Shown piece after piece: positions 12,900-64,000 of a stretch of 64,000 nt of DNA. The stretch comes from an uncultured Phycisphaerales bacterium (GTDB lineage Bacteria > Planctomycetota > Phycisphaerae > Tepidisphaerales > Tepidisphaeraceae), in NCBI GenBank assembly GCA_963758525.1, contig CAVWVQ010000003.1, positions 2,048,001 to 2,112,000 of the forward strand, read 5' to 3'. The notes beneath the pieces are model-generated. The model did no database searches. It saw only the letters and a list, made by a program, of their open reading frames with translations, and was not told the origin of the DNA. Made by a program: the position numbers and the translations under genes. Every line of letters starts with the position of its first letter. The stretch's first letter is position 1.

Positions 12900-12909
12900 C
12901 CCAGCCAGG

Positions 12910-13347
12910 CGCATCGTACGAAGTCTCTGATCAATCGATCAATCTGCGTGCATCTGCGTTTATCAGCGGTTAAATCTCTTTCAAGAAAGGGAACCGCAGA
13001 TGAACGCAGATGAACGCAGATTGAATGAAATCACTGAGAAGATCATCGGCTGCGCATACGATGTTGCATGGACTGGGAAGCGGGTTCCTGGAGAAAGTCT
13101 ATAAGAACGCTTTGCGCATCGTACGAAGTCTCTGATCAATCTGCGTGCATCTGCGTTTATCAGCGGTTAAATCTCTTCCCCTGAGCGGACGCCGCTGCTG
13201 GTGTGACCGCTTATCAAACAGAAGAAAGGGAACCGCAGATGAACGCAGATGAACGCAGATTGAATGAAATTACTGAGAAGCGCATCGTACGAAATCTCTG
13301 ATCAATCTGCGTTCATCTGCGTTGATCAGCGGTTCAATCTCTTTCCT
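12910..13347 (+). mobile_element. Tandem of three truncated or internally deleted GxxExxY-element derivatives (A: 3' end only; B; C)
   Basis: Nucleotide match to the 5' and 3' ends of gene 39915..40298 and to its flanking 33-bp inverted repeats and leader. Confidence 0.85.
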
Positions 13348-13351
13348 GATT

Positions 13352-14441: not shown

Positions 14442-14519
14442 GTTCCCAGCTCCACGCCGAATCCACCGCGATCATTGAAGCTCGCTGGGAATCCGCCTTC
14501 ACAATGGTTGATAAAGCGA

Positions 14520-14695
14520 TGCCGCTGCTGGTGTGACTGCTTTCTCAAACAGAAGAAAGGGAACCGCAGATGAACACAGATGAACGCAGATTGAATAAAA
14601 TCACTGAGAAGATCATCGGTTGCGCATACGATGTTGCCAATGGGCTGGGAGGTCTCTGATCAATCTGCGTTCATCTGCGTTTATCAGCGGTTCAA
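14520..14695 (+). mobile_element. Internally deleted GxxExxY-element derivative (copy D)
   Basis: Leader gccgctgctggtgtgactgc...aagaaagggaaccgcag, both inverted repeats, and mini-ORF 14570..14659 MNTDERRLNKITEKIIGCAYDVANGLGGL*. Confidence 0.85.
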
Positions 14696-14749
14696 CCAAC
14701 GGCGATATTGAAGCTCGGCGGTTATGTGCCTCAACAACGGGCCGACAAC

Positions 14750-28295: not shown

Positions 28296-30774
28296 CTACT
28301 TCACTTCCCACTCGAGAATGCCGCCGGAGAAGTCGTTCTGGAGCTTTACATTGAGGCGCAGCGCGGTGGTGTTGATCTTGCTGAAGCTCTGCGGGTTCAA
28401 CCGATTGGCGGCAACGCCGCCGAGGGAATCTGCCACTGCGCGTTTCCATGAGTCGCCGGCGCGATAGAGCACCTGCCATGCCGTGGGGACGCGGCATTGG
28501 CCGTGGCCGGTGTCGTCAAACCAGTAGACTGCGACGCCGGAAATATCCTGCGGCGTCTTGAAGTCGTATTGCACCCACTCCTCGGTTCCCTTGTGGTCCC
28601 ACCAGGTGAAGCGCGGAACGTTTTCGTCAGCGGAGGAAGCGGGGAGGATTCCGTCGTTGAGTGCATCCAGCGTATCGGGCCCGAGAAACGATGATGTGAC
28701 TTTCGCGCCCGCGGCCGGGCCGTGCGCGCGCGGGGGCCGGCCAGTCGTGAGCATCCGCGCCGGTTCCGATGACGGGAAATGCGCTGATGCGCAGGCGGGC
28801 CGCGCCCATCGGAATGAGCGTGATCGGCTCGACAGGTTCATCGGATCGCACGGGACTGGCCTGCAGCGGCATCAGGAGTTCTCGGCTGTCGGTCTTCCAG
28901 TTGAGCATCTTCCGGCCGCTGGCGTGAATTGCGAGGGGCGCTGTTTCGGGAGTGAAGGGCTGGGTCGCCGTTACGCCGTCTCTCCTGACCAGTTCCAGGG
29001 ATGCCGCGGGATCCTTCGCATCGAGCACCAGGCCGTAGTTCCACGGCGTCGTGGGACGCACCTCCTGCTCGGGGAACTGGTCGGTTCCGCCATAGCGAGA
29101 CCACTTTTCGCCAATGTCGAGTGAAAACGTGATCGGGCCGTAATTCACGGAGACCGCGTCTTTGTTTTTGGTCCATGTCTTTGTTCGTACTTTCATGGGA
29201 AGCTTGAGCGTGACGGTGTCGGCATCGGCCCATGTCCGGGAAATAGCGATGAAGTGATCGGGCCGGGCGTCGACCGCCACATCTTTCCTATTGATGGAGA
29301 CCGCGGGGTTCTCGCACCAGCCGGGCACGCGCAAATAGAGCGGAAAGTCCAACGGCTTGGCGGTCGATACCTTGAACTCAATCGCGTCGCTGAAGGGATA
29401 ATCCGTAACCTCCGAGATCCTCACGTTGGAGCCATTGGCGACTTTCGCATTCACCTCGCTGGCCGCGTACAGCGTGGCGGCAAGGCCGCCGTCGCTGGTG
29501 GCAGACCACATTTCCTCGGCGAAATACGGCCATCCCATGGCGTGATTGTGCTGGCAGCACCGATAGACGCCCAACGGGCTGTACGAAAACATGGTCCCGC
29601 CGTTCTGGATTCCCGGCGCTTTGTTTTCCCTGTCCAACTGCACCTGATTCGGGGCCGTGAGATAATGCAGAGCCTTCAGATCCGGCGTGAGCGCGGCAGG
29701 AAGAGAGTTGAACGCGAGTTCTTCACAACGATCGGCCCACGCTGCGTCCCCGCTGATTCGGCTCAGCATCTCGAAGCTGTGCATGAATTCGACGATCCCA
29801 CAGGTTTCGAAACCTTGCCGCGGATCGGTGAAGCCCGCCCGGCAGTTCTCATCTCCGCAGAAGCCGCCGCCTGGAACCTGTCCATAGATGCCCATCAGCG
29901 TGTTGTAGACATTCGCCGTGGCGGAATAGTCGGCTGGGCTCTTTGACTGCATGGAGTATTCCGCCGGCTCACGAAAGCCTTCGGCAAGATTGACGTTGTG
30001 CCAATTGGGCACGCCTTTGGTCCATGCGGCTGCGTGCCTGTGCAATTTCGCGGCAAGCTCCAGGAGCCAGGCATCGCCGGTCCGGTTATAGAGCCAGTAG
30101 ACGCTTTCCAGATTGTCGCCGGTTCGCATCTTGTCCCAATAGCCGCTGATAAACTGGTCGTCGGGAATCTGCAGCTCCCATTTGAAATACCGCGTCATGA
30201 GATCGATCGCGCGCTGGTCGCTGCTGAATTCGTAGTAGCTCTGCATGGCGTTCAGGATCGGCATGTGCGGCCAAAGATCGGGCTTGCCCCTGAGGGCGGT
30301 GCGAAGTCCCTGCGGGCCGAAAAAACCATCCGGCGATTGCGCCGCAAAGATCGCATCCAGCCATCGCTTCGCGTCGGCGGTGATGCGCTGATCTCCAAGG
30401 ACATAGCCCAAATCGCCGAAGCCCCGGAGCCAGTATGGAACTTCTTCCCATCCGTTTTTCCCTTCTCCCCTGGGATCGGTCCAGCCGTTGCCGTCAAACT
30501 TGCACCAGGGAGAAAGCTCCTCGAGGTGCCCGGCCATTCCGTCGGCTTCGAGGATGAGCATTTCGCGGAGCCAGCCCTTGGGCGTGATGCTTCCAATCGG
30601 AAGTCTGGCCATGGGCACCGACGCCAGCGGCGCACGGTTTGCGATCACCTGCCAATGAATGCCATCGACCGGGGGCGCAGAAACGCTTGTGACCGAATCA
30701 GCGTTCAGCGGGCTTGTCGGGATCGAGATGAAACACAGAACCAGACTCAGACTGCGCCCGATGTTCGAAATCAT
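28296..30774 (-). CDS. GH127/GH146-like beta-L-arabinofuranosidase with C-terminal F5/8-type (discoidin) module; frameshift near 28735
   Basis: GWEEVPYW, HNVNLAEG, FETCGIVEFM, RCCQHNH and LIPMGAARLRI; tail WWDHKGTEEWVQYDF in ORF 28296..28841. Confidence 0.85.
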
Positions 30775-30812
30775 CCTCACCCCCGCCCTCTCCCGGAATA
30801 CCGGGAGAGGGG
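30757..30812. repeat. REP-like palindrome, ccctcaccc-ccctctccc family copy 1
   Basis: cctcacccccgccctctcccggaataccgggagagggg; related copies at 44617 and 52373-52488. Confidence 0.8.
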
Positions 30813-31076
30813 GTAGGCCGCTCGAAGTTCTGAAGCATCTTGCAAAGACGTGACGAAGCCCCGCGCAAGTTGTGCGGTCCTTAGTCCATCGATCGGAATA
30901 TGCCTTTGCCACATGCCTCGATTTCAAAAACTGATCTCGATTGCCGCCCCCGCCTGTTAGGGATACAACGCTGAACGCAACGGCGTTGGTTCGGGATCGA
31001 TAGGTTTTCATTTCTCGCTTGAGTGTCGCTCCGAAATCATCGCCGATCGCTTGTGCGACGACAACGCGGAGGTTTT

Positions 31077-39546: not shown

Positions 39547-39643
39547 GGACGAGGCGCTGGCTGCGCCCGCAACCCAAAGCAAAGAATCTGACCGCGGATG
39601 AACGCAGGGAAAGAGATTGAACCGCTGATAAACGCCGATGAAC

Positions 39644-39903
39644 CCAGCGCTGCCTCGCTTCGCTCGGCCGCAACCAAACGAAGAGCCGCGAAGACGCGAA
39701 GACGCGAAGAGAGACGCGAAGGTAAGAAAATCAAAAATGCGGGATCGAAGCCCAAGGAATTGTGCCTTCGGGTTTCAGGTGCAATTGAATTGTCTTCCTT
39801 CGCGTTTGTCTTCGCGTCTTCGCGTCTTCGCGGCTCTTGATCTTTTGGCTGATCGCCTGCCCGGGAAAATTTGCGCAGCGCGCGAAGATCTCAATGGGTT
39901 GTG
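39644..39903. mobile_element. 260-bp non-coding insertion (cgcgaag-hairpin element) copy 1
   Basis: Splits the downstream IR as gatgaAC[260 bp]ACgcagatt; near-identical inverted copy at 47629-47887. Confidence 0.8.
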
Positions 39904-39914
39904 ACGCAGATTGG

Positions 39915-40298
39915 TCAGAGACTTCGTACGATTCGTTTAATGTCCACTTGTGGTTTCCCGAAGTTAATCAAGAGGCAAATGTGAAGGCCGGTCGCCTTGA
40001 GATAGTTGATGCATTGTGCCATGTGGATCTCGTCGAATGACTTCACTACCTTGAGTTCCACGATGACACATCCTTCAACCAACAGGTCCGCGTAATAATC
40101 GCCTGCTACCTCGCCGCGCCACAGGACTGGTATCGGATGCTGCTGCGAAACCGCGAGGCCCACATGACGCCGCTCGATGCGTAAAGCGTTCTCATAGACT
40201 TTCTCCAGGAACCCACTTCCCAGCCCATTGGCAACATCGTATGCGCAACCGATGATCTTCTCAGTGATTTCATTCAATCTGCGTTCATTTGCGTTCAT
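39915..40298 (-). CDS. GxxExxY protein (PD-(D/E)XK nuclease-like)
   Basis: GSGFLEKVYENAL, YADLLVEGCVIVELK, AQCINYLKATG and LLINFG; RBS aagaaaggga. Confidence 0.92.
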   Translation of the reverse strand: MNANERRLNEITEKIIGCAYDVANGLGSGFLEKVYENALRIERRHVGLAVSQQHPIPVLWRGEVAGDYYADLLVEGCVIVELKVVKSFDEIHMAQCINYLKATGLHICLLINFGKPQVDIKRIVRSL

Positions 40299-44466: not shown

Positions 44467-44672
44467 AGATCGAAGTCATAGAGCCGACGAATCCTCGGGT
44501 CAACACGTGCCCGACCGTCTCTGCGCCGCCCCCTCTCCAGGTATTTTCGGGAGATCGAAGTCATAGAGCCGAGAAATCCTCCGGTCAATGCGGTGCATGA
44601 CCATCTCTGCACGCTGCCCCCTCTCCCGGCATTTCCGGGAGAGGGCTGGGGTGAGGCTGATTTCGAACGTAG
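44467..44672. repeat. ~85-bp imperfect tandem duplication ending in ccctctccc-family palindrome (copy 2)
   Basis: agatcgaagtcatagagccga at 44467 and 44552, with similarity continuing through ccccctctcc..g..attt.cgggaga. Confidence 0.75.
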
Positions 44673-44714
44673 GGGATCTCTTGGTATTCGCAGGCTCAAA
44701 GCCCGCACGACAAC

Positions 44715-47341: not shown

Positions 47342-47368
47342 ATTGGAGCTCGAAGCGCGGATTTCGCG

Positions 47369-48009
47369 GCGCTGGCCTCGCCCGCAACCCAAATCAAAGA
47401 ATCTGACCGCGGATGAACGCAGGGAAAGAGATTGAACCGCTGATAAACGCCGATGAACGCAGATTGATCAGAGACTTCGTACGACGCGTTTAACGCCCAA
47501 TTGCAAGTTCCCGAAGTTGATCAAGAGGCAAATGTGAAGGCAGGAACCCACTTCCAGCCCATTGGCAACATCCTATGCGCAGTCGGTGTTCTTCTCAGTG
47601 ATTTCATTTAATCTGCGTTCATTTGTGTCACAACCCATTGAGATCTTCGCGCTGCGCAAATTTTCCCGGGCGGGCGATCAGCCAAAAGATCAAGAGCCGC
47701 GAAGACGCGAAGCCGCGAAGACAAACGCGAAGGAAGACAATTCAATTGCACCTGAAACCCGAAGGCGCAATTCCTTGGGCTTCGATCCCGCATTTTTGAT
47801 TTTCTTACCTTCGCGTCTCTCTTCGCGTCTTCGCGTCTTCGCGGCTCTTCGTTTTGGTTGCGGCCGAGCGAAGCGAGGCAGCGCCGGGTTTATCTGCGGT
47901 TCCCTTTCTTCTGTTTGATAAAGCATTCACACCAGCAGCGGCGTCGCCGACAGCATCGTGAAGAAGTGACGACGAATGCTTGGAGTGTAACGTAGAGAAG
48001 GGAGAGGTT
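47369..48009 (-). mobile_element. Degenerate, internally deleted GxxExxY element (copy E) with nested insertion
   Basis: Matches 39554-40414 at both ends; ORF deleted between FL and LHICLLINFG (join 47540/47541) with an internal TAG. Confidence 0.82.
47629..47887. mobile_element. 259-bp non-coding insertion (cgcgaag-hairpin element) copy 2
   Basis: Reverse complement of 39644-39903; on the - strand it splits the upstream IR as gataaAC[insert]ACacaaatgaacgcagatt. Confidence 0.8.
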
Positions 48010-50546
48010 TGCCGGCGCAGCCTGCGCCAAGTCTTATCTGCGCCCGGCTTTGCCCGTGGCGGAATCCGCACCGGCTTTTTCACCACCGCAGCGCCGATTC
48101 CATCTGTTCCCGCCGCGTCGATCGGCGGATCGAGCGGAAGAATCTTCAGCGATACGACATTCGTCGGGCAGACCTCGACGCACTCCCCGTCCAGATCGCA
48201 TTTGTTGAGATGCCGAAGATCGACCAGGGCCTTGCCGTCGATCATGCGCAACACCCCCTTGTCGCAATGGGCGACGCAGACTTCGCACCCGATGCAGTCG
48301 CGCGTGTCGATGTTCAGTGCCACGCGATACATCTGTCCGTCGGCGGGATCTTCACGAACAAAATTCCCGGTGGGGCTGGCGGTTTCGCGGGAATCATTGA
48401 TCTCAAAATCCGCGTCAAGCTGGTCGAAATGGCCGTGTGACTGCACTTGCACCGTCCCGCGGCGGCGCAAACGGTAGACCGGCTGATTGCAGCTCTCGCA
48501 CAGTTGGAGCTGTTCGAGCTTCTCCAGATACTTGATCGTCGTGCTGACGACGGTCGCGTGAGACCAGGTCAGCGGGCTGACGCTCAGCGGCGCGTTCGTG
48601 TATGGATTCACTTGCTCGGCAAGCACGCCGCTTTCCAGCGCGTGGCCTGCCGTCCATTCGAAGATCGGAATCGCGGCTTTGAGCTCGGCGACGCTTTTGG
48701 CGCACGCGATGTAATAGTCAGCCATCCACAGCGTGCAGATAAACCACGGATTTCCCGGGACGGCCGCGATGTCGCTGCTGATCCGATGATAGTAGTCGTT
48801 TTCGTAGCGCGCCACGCCCCCAACGCGTGTCTTGACCCACAGCTTCTGCTCGACGGCCCGCATCGTCGATTCGACGCGCGGATCTTCGACCTCAAAGAGA
48901 TGAAATTTGAAAATCGCCCAGAGCGAAGCATCCACCGTTTCGTCGACTTCAAAAAGCTCGTCGATCGACGGATCGTGGAGCAGCGGATCTTTTTCCTGAT
49001 AATCGCCCGCGTCCGGCGGCTTGGGAACATCCTTCATCACCAGCCGGCGAACAAACCGGCCAAGCTTCTCGCTGTACAGATATTTCGCGGCTCCCTCTTT
49101 TACTTCCTTCGCGGCCCTGGCGTAGATTTCCGCTTTGACGCGGTCGCCAAAGCAGACGGCAAAGTTGTGTGCCGCTTTGAGCCCGCCATAGACCGTTGCC
49201 ACGGTGAACGCATGAACGCCCCACCGCTCCTCCCACAAGTCGTAGCTGGGAAGCGGCAAACCCGTGCGCGGATCGCGGTAACGGACCATGAAATCCGCCG
49301 CCTTCTGCACCAGGTCCACCCACAGCGGGCGGATGAATTCGATGTCGCGATAGCGGAAATAGTGGCGCCACAGCGCCCAGACGACCAGGGCCGTTTCATC
49401 TTCCTGAATCGGCATCGCCCGGTTGCCCTTGAGCACCCACGGATGCCAGCTTGAGGCTGGCGAACCGTCCGGGTTGTACTTGTGATAGAAATAACCCTCG
49501 TCGGTGAGCACGTCGCTGCAGAATTTGTAGAACCATCGCGCGATGTCGGGGAAGCCCGCCATATCGAGTGAATTCGCGACCAGCGCCCCGTCGCGCGGCC
49601 ACATATAGGAATAGGTGTCGCGCGAGAACTGCATGATGTCCGAGTCATTGGCGGCAATGATCGCGCCGCCGTTGTCGATCTGCGTGCGCAGCACCAGCAG
49701 CGAACGCTTGAAGAGCTCGACCACTTTCTGCGGGAGGTTGCCGAAATTGATGTTGGTCCCGCCCGCCCAGAGCCGCCAGTAGCTGCTCGTGCGATCCACC
49801 ACGCCCTGCGGTCCCATCTTCGCCAGCCAGTTGTTGAGTTCGAGCAATTCATCGCGCGACTTGCCCGCCATGATGATCATGTAGACGTTCTGCTCAGCCT
49901 CGGGGGCGAGCGGGACGTGCAGCGAGATGGTTGAATCGACCGAGCCCTGTGCGATCGGGTTGCCCTGCAGATGCCCGTCTTCCGCGTCACGGTAGGTTCC
50001 CTCAGCTCCGTTAAACCCACTTTTCCCCGTCGCATATTCGTCGATGCGCTGTACGGCATCGGCGTGAAACGTGATCATCAAATATCGCTTGGCGCGATAA
50101 TGCACCATGCCATTCAGCTCGGGATCGAAGTAGGCGGTGTCGCCCACTTTCGTGCCAAACATGCTGAAATCGTTGTGATGCATCACCTTGGCGACGCGGG
50201 CGTGCGGAGCAAGATTCTTGATCTTGATCTTGCGGATCAGGATGTTGCGATGGAAATCGACGACGTCGTTGCAGTAGAGCGCCAGCCGAAGCTCGCGATG
50301 ATCGAGGCTGACGCTGGTGGTGAGCGTGTCGCGCAGATACCGCTGCCGGACGTTCCACCCGTCGCAGCTCCACGCCAGCAGCGAGCGCTGCTGCCCCGGA
50401 ACATCGCAGTAGACGCCAAAATGGCACGGCCCAGCGCCGGCGTGATTCTCCTGCCCGACGTGAGGAAAATACAGATCGCGAATCTGGTACTGATGATCGA
50501 AGTTAACGAGCAGTTGCCCGTTGCCGACCGGAATATCTCGTGGCAT
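47805..50546 (-). CDS. GH15 glucoamylase-like hydrolase fused to C-terminal dicluster ferredoxin domain (ORF tail runs into repeat element)
   Basis: MPRDIPVGNG, YSYMWPRDGA, QEDETA, SYDLWEER, LAEQV and SPLTWSHA; then CIGCEVCVAHC and CDLDGECVEVCP. Confidence 0.85.
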   Translation of the reverse strand: MPRDIPVGNGQLLVNFDHQYQIRDLYFPHVGQENHAGAGPCHFGVYCDVPGQQRSLLAWSCDGWNVRQRYLRDTLTTSVSLDHRELRLALYCNDVVDFHRNILIRKIKIKNLAPHARVAKVMHHNDFSMFGTKVGDTAYFDPELNGMVHYRAKRYLMITFHADAVQRIDEYATGKSGFNGAEGTYRDAEDGHLQGNPIAQGSVDSTISLHVPLAPEAEQNVYMIIMAGKSRDELLELNNWLAKMGPQGVVDRTSSYWRLWAGGTNINFGNLPQKVVELFKRSLLVLRTQIDNGGAIIAANDSDIMQFSRDTYSYMWPRDGALVANSLDMAGFPDIARWFYKFCSDVLTDEGYFYHKYNPDGSPASSWHPWVLKGNRAMPIQEDETALVVWALWRHYFRYRDIEFIRPLWVDLVQKAADFMVRYRDPRTGLPLPSYDLWEERWGVHAFTVATVYGGLKAAHNFAVCFGDRVKAEIYARAAKEVKEGAAKYLYSEKLGRFVRRLVMKDVPKPPDAGDYQEKDPLLHDPSIDELFEVDETVDASLWAIFKFHLFEVEDPRVESTMRAVEQKLWVKTRVGGVARYENDYYHRISSDIAAVPGNPWFICTLWMADYYIACAKSVAELKAAIPIFEWTAGHALESGVLAEQVNPYTNAPLSVSPLTWSHATVVSTTIKYLEKLEQLQLCESCNQPVYRLRRRGTVQVQSHGHFDQLDADFEINDSRETASPTGNFVREDPADGQMYRVALNIDTRDCIGCEVCVAHCDKGVLRMIDGKALVDLRHLNKCDLDGECVEVCPTNVVSLKILPLDPPIDAAGTDGIGAAVVKKPVRIPPRAKPGADKTWRRLRRQTSPFSTLHSKHSSSLLHDAVGDAAAGVNALSNRRKGTADKPGAASLRSAATKTKSREDAKTRRETRR

Positions 50547-52372: not shown

Positions 52373-52488
52373 CCCCCTCTCCCGGTATTCCGGGAGAGGG
52401 TTGGGGTGAGGGTGCTTGGATCGACGAATGCCGTCGGTGCTCGAAATCACCCTCACCCTGTCCCTCTCCCGGAGTACCAGGAGAGGGG
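52373..52488. repeat. Inverted pair of ccctcaccc-ccctctccc palindromes (copies 3 and 4)
   Basis: cccctctcccggtattccgggagagggttggggtgagggt ... accctcaccctgtccctctcccggagtaccaggagagggg. Confidence 0.82.
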
Positions 52489-52559
52489 ATCGGAGGGCGT
52501 TCGCAGCGAAATTAAGCCACGTGCATTGCGACCAGGATGCTACATCACCGCAACGTCAC

Positions 52560-55712: not shown

Positions 55713-55769
55713 GGCCTGATGCTACGAAACTCCGGCTGACAATTCATCATTCGCATTGAATTCGAAATT

Positions 55770-56058
55770 GAAGAGCCGAAGGCGCGAAGCAGCGAAGACA
55801 AACGCGAAGCCGGGGGAGTGCAAACCGTGCGTGACGCGCTGGGCCCGCGGCCCGTTGCCGTGGCACGCGTGCCACGGGGAAGCGTATCAACTCTCACAGG
55901 ATGAGTCGCACTGCCGCAGCGGCGTTGCCGTGGCACGGGCATCTTGCCCGTGCTGGTTGCGTCGACAATGACGAGCATCTGCGGGTCGCACCAACAGGCT
56001 CCACCCGCTTTCTCTTCTTCGCTTCTGTCTTCGCTACTTCGCGCCTTCGCGGCTCTTC
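55770..56058. repeat. cgcgaag-family inverted repeat enclosing gtggcac palindromes
   Basis: gaagagccgaaggcgcgaagcagcgaagacaaacgcgaag / cttcgcttctgtcttcgctacttcgcgccttcgcggctcttc. Confidence 0.78.
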
Positions 56059-63711: not shown

Positions 63712-64000
63712 ATGCAGATTGTCGACAGCAAGATTACTGACGTGAAGATCCTGGAGCCGCGCCGCATCTCCGATGTGCGCGGGTATTTCAGCGAGACGTA
63801 CAGCGAACGGTTGCTCCGGGCGGCGGGGATTCATGTCGCTTTTGTGCAGGACAATGAATCGCTCTCCGTGGAAAAGGGGGTCGTGCGCGGCCTGCACTAC
63901 CAGATTGCGCCGGCGGCACAGGCGAAGCTCATCCGGGTGGTCAGCGGGGCCATCCTCGACGTTGCCGTGGATATTCGCAGAAGCTCGCCGACGTTTGGAG
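63712..64000 (+). CDS. rfbC: dTDP-4-dehydrorhamnose 3,5-epimerase (partial, runs off window)
   Basis: Manual translation: MQIVDSKITDVKILEP...DVRGYFSETY...FVQDNESLS...RGLHYQ...QAKLIRVVSGAILDVAVDIRRSSPTFG. Confidence 0.93.
   Translation, partial: MQIVDSKITDVKILEPRRISDVRGYFSETYSERLLRAAGIHVAFVQDNESLSVEKGVVRGLHYQIAPAAQAKLIRVVSGAILDVAVDIRRSSPTFG

Follow-up and report, generated by a model that had tools for sequence, protein, structure and literature searches.

The window analysed here is a 64,000-nucleotide stretch from the genome of an uncultured Phycisphaerales bacterium (G000; assembly of 6.47 Mb, 90.9% complete), and it holds two copies of a short insert, each seated in an arm of a GxxExxY hairpin cassette. 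Copy 1 (262 bp, 39644..39905, + strand) interrupts the downstream arm of an intact cassette, whose GxxExxY gene (TIGR04256, E 2e-40) lies at 39915..40298 on the − strand, and a deleted cassette carries copy 2 (261 bp, 47627..47887, − strand) in its upstream arm. Both inserts are thus found in the two hosts named by the original prediction, in identical register and orientation relative to the 10-mer of the repeat. The two copies agree in 256 of 260 aligned bases, with 3 gap bases.

Copy 1 is built of three parts: a left end (39644..39678, +), which starts with CCAG and continues through a GC hairpin to GCAACC; a gene-less hairpin cassette; and a right end (39864..39905, +) of the form AAAT..GCGAAGA..TTGTG(A/G)C, here closing with TTGTGAC. 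We consider the left end putatively ter-like and the right end putatively ori-like. The cassette has one arm of GACGCGAA units at 39681..39734 (+) and a second at 39785..39838 (−), an inverted version of the first and 87% complementary to it, so that the internal inverted repeat of ≈43 bp described in the original prediction is real, its length having been understated: the arms are 54 nt long. The insert does include a repeat-derived reading frame of 88 codons from an ATG (39638-39904). An Rfam scan of the insert gave no match at the gathering level, the sub-threshold matches to miRNA precursors being caused by its long hairpin, and the strand asymmetry of its fold is not significant (z −9.1 vs −8.5).

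On the left the insert abuts GATGAAC (39637..39643, +), whose terminal C is target DNA, and on the right GCAGATT (39906..39912, +). When the two halves are rejoined they give the sequence of empty paralogous arms, found at 9 places with at most 2 mismatches from the rejoined flanks, for a net insertion of 262 bp; the target of copy 1 is an arm of the cassette of the neighbouring GxxExxY gene. Furthermore, left ends of a second kind, subtype B of the same element family, precede the host cassette of copy 1 (39553..39578, +) and the deleted host of copy 2 (47368..47393, +), so both hosts themselves lie behind a family end; a degenerate subtype-B left end facing the opposite way is found at 48007..48028 (−). 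Elsewhere in the window, further deleted GxxExxY cassettes with GATGAACGCA arms stand in tandem at 12900-13350 and 14516-14710 and carry no insert, and a diverged pair of GACGCGAA arms without family ends flanks an unrelated 180-bp core at 55769-56058.

Genome-wide, the insert occupies 13 sites with 20 right ends (22 rows of pattern matches, from which a variant family and a single chance row were removed), three of the sites being tandem arrays. The units with both ends (n = 13) are 90–100% identical to copy 1. The base to the left of the insertion is C at all 13 sites and is the sole constant base of the left flank, while the dinucleotide after TTGTG is AC at 7 sites and GC at 6. In full-size relatives the element terminates in TAGTAGT at the same position and the left C is retained; we therefore count the right (A/G)C as part of the element and the left AC as target DNA. 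The original prediction had read the AC seen on both sides as a 2-bp duplication or a shared core. AC does flank the insert on both sides at 4 sites, the two window copies included, but left and right dinucleotides are equal at just 5/13 sites, where ≈4.2 would be expected from the column frequencies, and this comparison supports neither idea.

The survey of flanks instead gives a target of C^AC(A/G): after the C, A is found at 12/13 sites, C at 12/13 and a purine at 13/13. GA(T/G) stands 6–7 nt before the cut at 12/13 sites, versus 7.2% of 92,235 background CAC(A/G) sites, an enrichment from which we conclude that tandem arms of the CACRGAT type are preferred as target. Four of the 13 sites fall in one arm family, and several others lie in unrelated arms or single units; two hosts carry one rare flank variant. 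Two pairs of sites have host arms in common and may not be wholly independent. The different flanks and the haplotypes across the 13 sites support the earlier reading of the window copies as separate insertions. One detail is less simple. In the GATGAACGCA arms the base after the element is A in 3 of 4 insertions, and the corresponding base of empty units is G in 23 of 24; a clean cut at C^ is not enough to account for this. The insert is a real, recently spread mobile miniature of an unclassified transposon family, and the 13 sites support the proposal that it is a non-autonomous, sequence-targeted element that uses GxxExxY-type arms and is mobilised in trans.

Tandem arrays of the miniature or of its variant are located in G000 at C3:573870-575652, C3:4092495-4093896, C3:3900152-3901447 and C3:3463923-3465060. 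In the array at 574k a left-truncated unit recurs with 140 bp of its flank, the joint being a 5-base microhomology within the left hairpin. The array at 4092k, itself located in a GxxExxY arm, reproduces this array as a block, including the 140-bp spacers. Array junctions recur among the short-read contigs of run X2. A right-to-left joint, as in a circle, was not among the joints listed for four contig sets, in which contigs can show presence only. One contig of run X4 omits the 262 bases and probably represents a paralogous or foreign empty arm. The exact right-end pattern was found in 0 of 150 genomes, and in 60 related genomes the whole 260-bp query matched pieces of arms and nothing more.

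The ends of the miniature are shared with much larger elements. Its left end, taken with the target C, is identical in 35 of 36 bases to that of the full-size element L340, in 34/36 to L361 and in 32/36 to L366, and it follows the family pattern C(N)(Y)AGCGC-hairpin-GCAACC; the right end likewise follows the family pattern AAAT..AAGA..WGTRRY beside the target. Scanning genome_contigs with the left-end pattern returned 121 loci, or an estimated ≈1,100 stretches, from many phyla, and a right end was located for 17 of 122 left-end matches (106 of the 122 had at least 300 bases downstream). In L208, L224 and L195 a single ORF of ≈515 codons lies between the two ends. Starting from the gene, loci with enough flank have the left motif in 70/95 cases, the right motif in 69/95 and both in 51/85, counts that include repeated copies and a loose right motif (58 of 76 matches pass a stricter form). 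Genome G277 alone holds seven full-size elements with identical ends and different flanks, at C^AC(R) targets without duplication.

Of 300 other genomes, 7 contain the right-end type of the miniature, TTGTG(A/G)C, against 0 in the control. In L470, L471 and L474, from two genomes, it lies directly 3′ of the stop codon of the 515-aa gene, and the copy-1 right end is identical to these gene-linked ends in 27–28 of 42 bases. A matrix built from 54 full-size right ends alone places 8 of the 20 miniature right ends within the top 32 of 12.9 million positions, the matrix being unspecific on its own (above 11 bits, 57 matches in the reversed genome vs 32). Finally, G000 retains a remnant at C4:≈63905-63993, consisting of the 14 terminal codons of the 515-aa gene followed by a right end, while its vicinity lacks a left end; 10 of its 14 residues are identical to the C-terminus of L474, and its insertion point, C^GCAGATT of a GxxExxY arm, is like that of copy 1. 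A C-terminal profile failed to pick up this 14-codon remnant, and neither tblastn nor a genome search returned an intact gene of the family in G000 (at 90.9% completeness), so this assembly offers no cognate enzyme for the recent copies. Taken together, these shared ends make it very probable that the miniature belongs to the family of the 515-aa gene. A search of viral_contigs did not return the 515-aa family, and the 21 viral matches to the right-end pattern look like chance.

At least 7,876 homologues of the ≈515-aa protein were found among 7,999 scored candidates, named just “hypothetical”; the family is present in 7 of 201 genomes of a phylum-wide sample and 8 of 141 of a family-wide one. 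It has no Pfam or NCBIfam family, a PDB sequence search gave no match, PHROGs gave a weak winged-helix match and nothing else, Foldseek with the models gave nothing at E ≤ 0.001, and the Atlas neighbours are unnamed. No description of the family was found in the openly accessible literature searched. The structure models are confident (pLDDT 88.6 and 92.7). The N-domain model matches TBP with Z 8.2, RepDE (4cwc) with Z 6.9 (rmsd 4.9, 177 aligned) and RepSTK1 (4cij) with Z 6.7 (rmsd 4.8, 194 aligned); the values of 6.7–6.9 lie below the comparison tool's own caution line of 8, and since unrelated folds score alike we treat the likeness to Rep_trans as suggestive only. The C-domain is modelled as a MarR-like winged helix.

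Six residues show no variation in either alignment and fall on strands of the model: D20, D250, Y320, K322, R328 and E330. Their order is that of the Rep_trans motifs N′, I, III and IV as given in the accessible text of PMC5714925, and it also parallels D46, D142, Y191 and E214 of RepDE in that of PMC13107129. Neither an HUH motif nor helical tyrosines are invariant in the protein, the conserved Tyr being on a strand. On the strength of these models, the ≈515-aa protein is predicted to be a Rep_trans-type tyrosine nickase. Judging from the sequence links above, an unclassified Rep_trans-like protein of this family is also the most likely recombinase to have moved the miniature.

Rep_trans initiators (PF02486; RepDE 4cwc, RepSTK1 4cij) have a TBP-like fold with D, D, YxK and LRxE on strands, according to the accessible parts of PMC5714925, and Rep-Arvir, treated with RepSNJ2 in the accessible text of PMC13107129, has a C-terminal MarR-like winged helix. 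The 515-aa protein would resemble both, with its predicted TBP-like fold, the order D-D-YxK-RxE on the modelled strands and the modelled MarR-like winged helix at the C-terminus. It differs from Rep_trans in length (515 aa), in its large insertions and in the lack of a sequence match to PF02486, whose profile matched 0 of 77 family members at E ≤ 0.1; the setting of its gene differs too, being an integrated element with fixed ends and multiple copies instead of a plasmid, a virus or a conjugative element.

In its layout the family comes closest to IS91. The accessible text of PMC13181058 and PMC5714925 describes IS91, IS801 and IS1294 as having unlike ends without terminal inverted repeats, no target duplication, a short fixed target beside the gene-downstream end, a hairpin beside the far cut, a far cut site that resembles the target, and gene-less miniatures that can be moved in trans. 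The family of the miniature has all of these: unlike ends, no terminal inverted repeats, no duplication, the target at the gene-downstream end, a hairpin at a target-like putative far cut site, and gene-less miniatures. The IS91 analogy of the original prediction is thus closer than its IS110 analogy. Unlike IS91, whose TnpA is an HUH/Y2 enzyme with 5′-CTTG or GTTC targets (PMC13181058, PMC5714925, as far as accessible), the family has a protein without an invariant HUH motif and with a predicted TBP-like fold, and the miniature inserts at C^AC(A/G), within tandem repeat arms for the most part.

Other known systems fit less well. IS200/IS605 elements with their miniatures, and REP/REPIN repeats with RAYT, rely on Y1 HUH enzymes; they resemble the miniature in lacking a duplication, in hairpin ends, in a target-like cut site within the element and in gene-less copies that outnumber the parent copies, but the 23 Y1 matches in G000 have unrelated ends. 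IS110 and IS1111 share insertion into repeats without long duplications, yet the miniature has neither a two-sided core nor a linked DEDD gene, and its insert has none of 9 target words, although a guide could be encoded elsewhere. In contrast with a classical MITE, its ends are unlike, its inverted repeat is internal and the target is not duplicated. The miniature belongs to none of IS91, IS110, IS200/IS605 or the MITEs, but likely works in an IS91-like manner.

The interior of the miniature provides the link to the GxxExxY repeats. In G000, at C3:275331-275915, an intact GxxExxY gene lies between arms of the same GACGCGAA type and is preceded by a degenerate form of the miniature's left end, and because the arms of the insert match those of this cassette we read the insert as a pair of ends around a GxxExxY-type cassette without its gene. 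A resemblance between the centre of the insert and the start of the GxxExxY gene at C3:275k is weak, 38 of 1000 shuffles being equally good, and was set aside. Miniatures with similar ends and other cargo are found in G000 at C2:252415-252652, C3:302298-302793 and C3:4150916-4150684, as well as in the viral contigs L038 and L126. At 6 of 80 metagenome loci a GxxExxY gene stands no more than 500 bases upstream; in the four inspected (L345, L352, L356 and L360) it is divergent and adjoins the 515-aa gene, with arm-like units after the stop codon. L391 is likewise a full-size element with a divergent GxxExxY gene beside the 515-aa gene, and in L318 and L401 elements are inserted in an arm beside a GxxExxY gene. 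In L349 the place of the GxxExxY gene beside the 515-aa gene is taken by what we presume to be a four-helix-bundle-like gene. At L186 (G002 C5) a family left end is followed by CACGGAT arms interrupted by a gene that we call IS110-like from the appearance of its ORF, and which may represent a second type of element using the same arms. A description of GxxExxY cassettes as mobile was not found in the openly accessible literature searched; the accessible part of 10.1101/2021.01.26.428298 merely names the domain.

We believe, with reasonable though not full confidence, that an unclassified IS family has this insert as its gene-less miniature, moved in trans by the predicted Rep_trans nickase through an IS91-like rolling circle. 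Read on the bottom strand, the target is CYGT^G, and the left end has CTGG^G or CCGG^G, or CTAG^G in the case of G277; as the layout matches IS91 and the far cut site resembles the target, the right end is read as the origin and the left end as the terminator. The enzyme would nick the bottom strand at the ori-like right end, in the target CYGT^ beside the element, and replication would displace the nicked strand. A second cut would follow after the left-end hairpin at CTGG^G or CCGG^G, a ter-like site that mimics the target, and the single-strand circle so formed would then integrate at another C^AC(A/G) site, preferably in tandem CACRGAT-type arms. The cargo would be a GxxExxY hairpin cassette minus its gene, so that the arms serve as both target and passenger. 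A start at a later right end, with a stop at the one left end that is intact, would account for the 4092k array, as would a two-ended cut. Neither DNA captured past the left end, as in one-ended transposition, nor a transposition intermediate was demonstrated.

The main rival keeps the family and the enzyme and changes the route: the enzyme would cleave both ends while a single strand is exposed and the donor would be resealed, in the peel-and-paste manner of IS200/IS605 and without rolling-circle synthesis. The absence of duplication, a left terminus that mimics the target, hairpins at both ends and the preference for hairpin-forming arms all suit such a route, and from sequence alone the two routes are inseparable. 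We nonetheless consider it unlikely, since the layout from gene to end, the hairpin at the far cut and the target at the near end fit the IS91 pattern (accessible text of PMC13181058), the modelled enzyme resembles replication initiators, remnants with the right end only exist, and the 4092k array appears to have travelled as one block that reaches from a later right end to the single left end still intact. A very unlikely reading is that the insert was spread by the GxxExxY system itself, through nuclease-induced homing or gene conversion between arms, the family ends being inherited decoration. It would account for the GxxExxY-type interior, for the 4/13 sites in one arm family and for copies that are haplotype mosaics, with a rare flank variant common to two hosts; all 13 sites, however, break exactly at the family ends and never at the arms, several lie in unrelated arms or single units, and elsewhere the same ends flank unrelated cargo or the 515-aa gene.

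Movement by an IS110/IS1111-type recombinase through an AC core, perhaps guided by RNA from the insert as a bridge RNA, draws on the AC found on both sides at 4 sites and on the four intact IS110 copies of the genome. We hold it to be extremely unlikely: the match of dinucleotides is at chance level, the ends and targets of the IS110 copies are unrelated, 0 of 9 target words occur in the insert on either strand, and both ends are linked to a different gene. The least likely of the readings weighed here derives the two window copies from one inversion, an arm-to-arm template switch or a misassembly. The hosts at 39.6-40.4 kb and 47.4-48.0 kb are indeed related direct repeats with inverted inserts, but their gene remnants keep their orientation, and the copies lie in different units of different arms. 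Copies 1 and 2 also differ in haplotype, the variants of copy 2 being common to dispersed copies and not to copy 1, which argues against a local inversion; there are 11 further sites besides, and the array junctions recur in short-read contigs from run X2.

Known transposase chemistries include those of the DDE, DEDD, HUH, serine, tyrosine recombinase and Cas1 enzymes. The roles given for Rep_trans enzymes in PMC5714925 and PMC13107129 are the replication of plasmids and phages and conjugative transfer. We put at about even the chance that the elements described here form a new class of bacterial transposon, with TBP-fold Rep_trans nickases, that numbers in the thousands, targets GxxExxY arms and carries their cassettes. 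If so, the at least 7,876 unannotated Rep_trans-fold proteins would add a class of transposase, the elements would be a main vehicle that spreads GxxExxY hairpin repeats across phyla, and the family would explain many gene-junction repeats in environmental bacteria. The 262-bp element would then be a ready-made minimal substrate that defines both ends. As the miniature defines the two ends and the target at single-base precision, the claim is directly testable with one gene and ≈80 bases of ends, and the link between the family and GxxExxY, through targets and cargo, is likewise a testable route for the spread of the cassettes.

Other mobile genes of G000 were rejected as movers. The four near-identical IS110 copies (C3:2707646, 3872656, 4129647 and 4131821) have ends unrelated to the miniature; the motif that hosts all four is presumably the prepilin N-terminal sequence of different genes. 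Group II intron-type reverse transcriptases gave 6 matches, and the 5 inspected have unrelated ends. One element of this type, with a 466-codon RT frame, is present in four copies (C1:202459, C1:207753, C2:269151 and C3:3034309), with flanks that we take to be integron cassette repeats. None of 23 matches to Y1 transposases has these ends in the flanks inspected. Multi-copy Y1 (HUH) genes at C3:303867, 305758 and 4614154, C1:316102 and elsewhere have long terminal inverted repeats, which are unusual for Y1 enzymes. Within the window, a different family of REP-like palindromic repeats occupies gene junctions at 30750-30817, 44552-44674 and 52373-52493.
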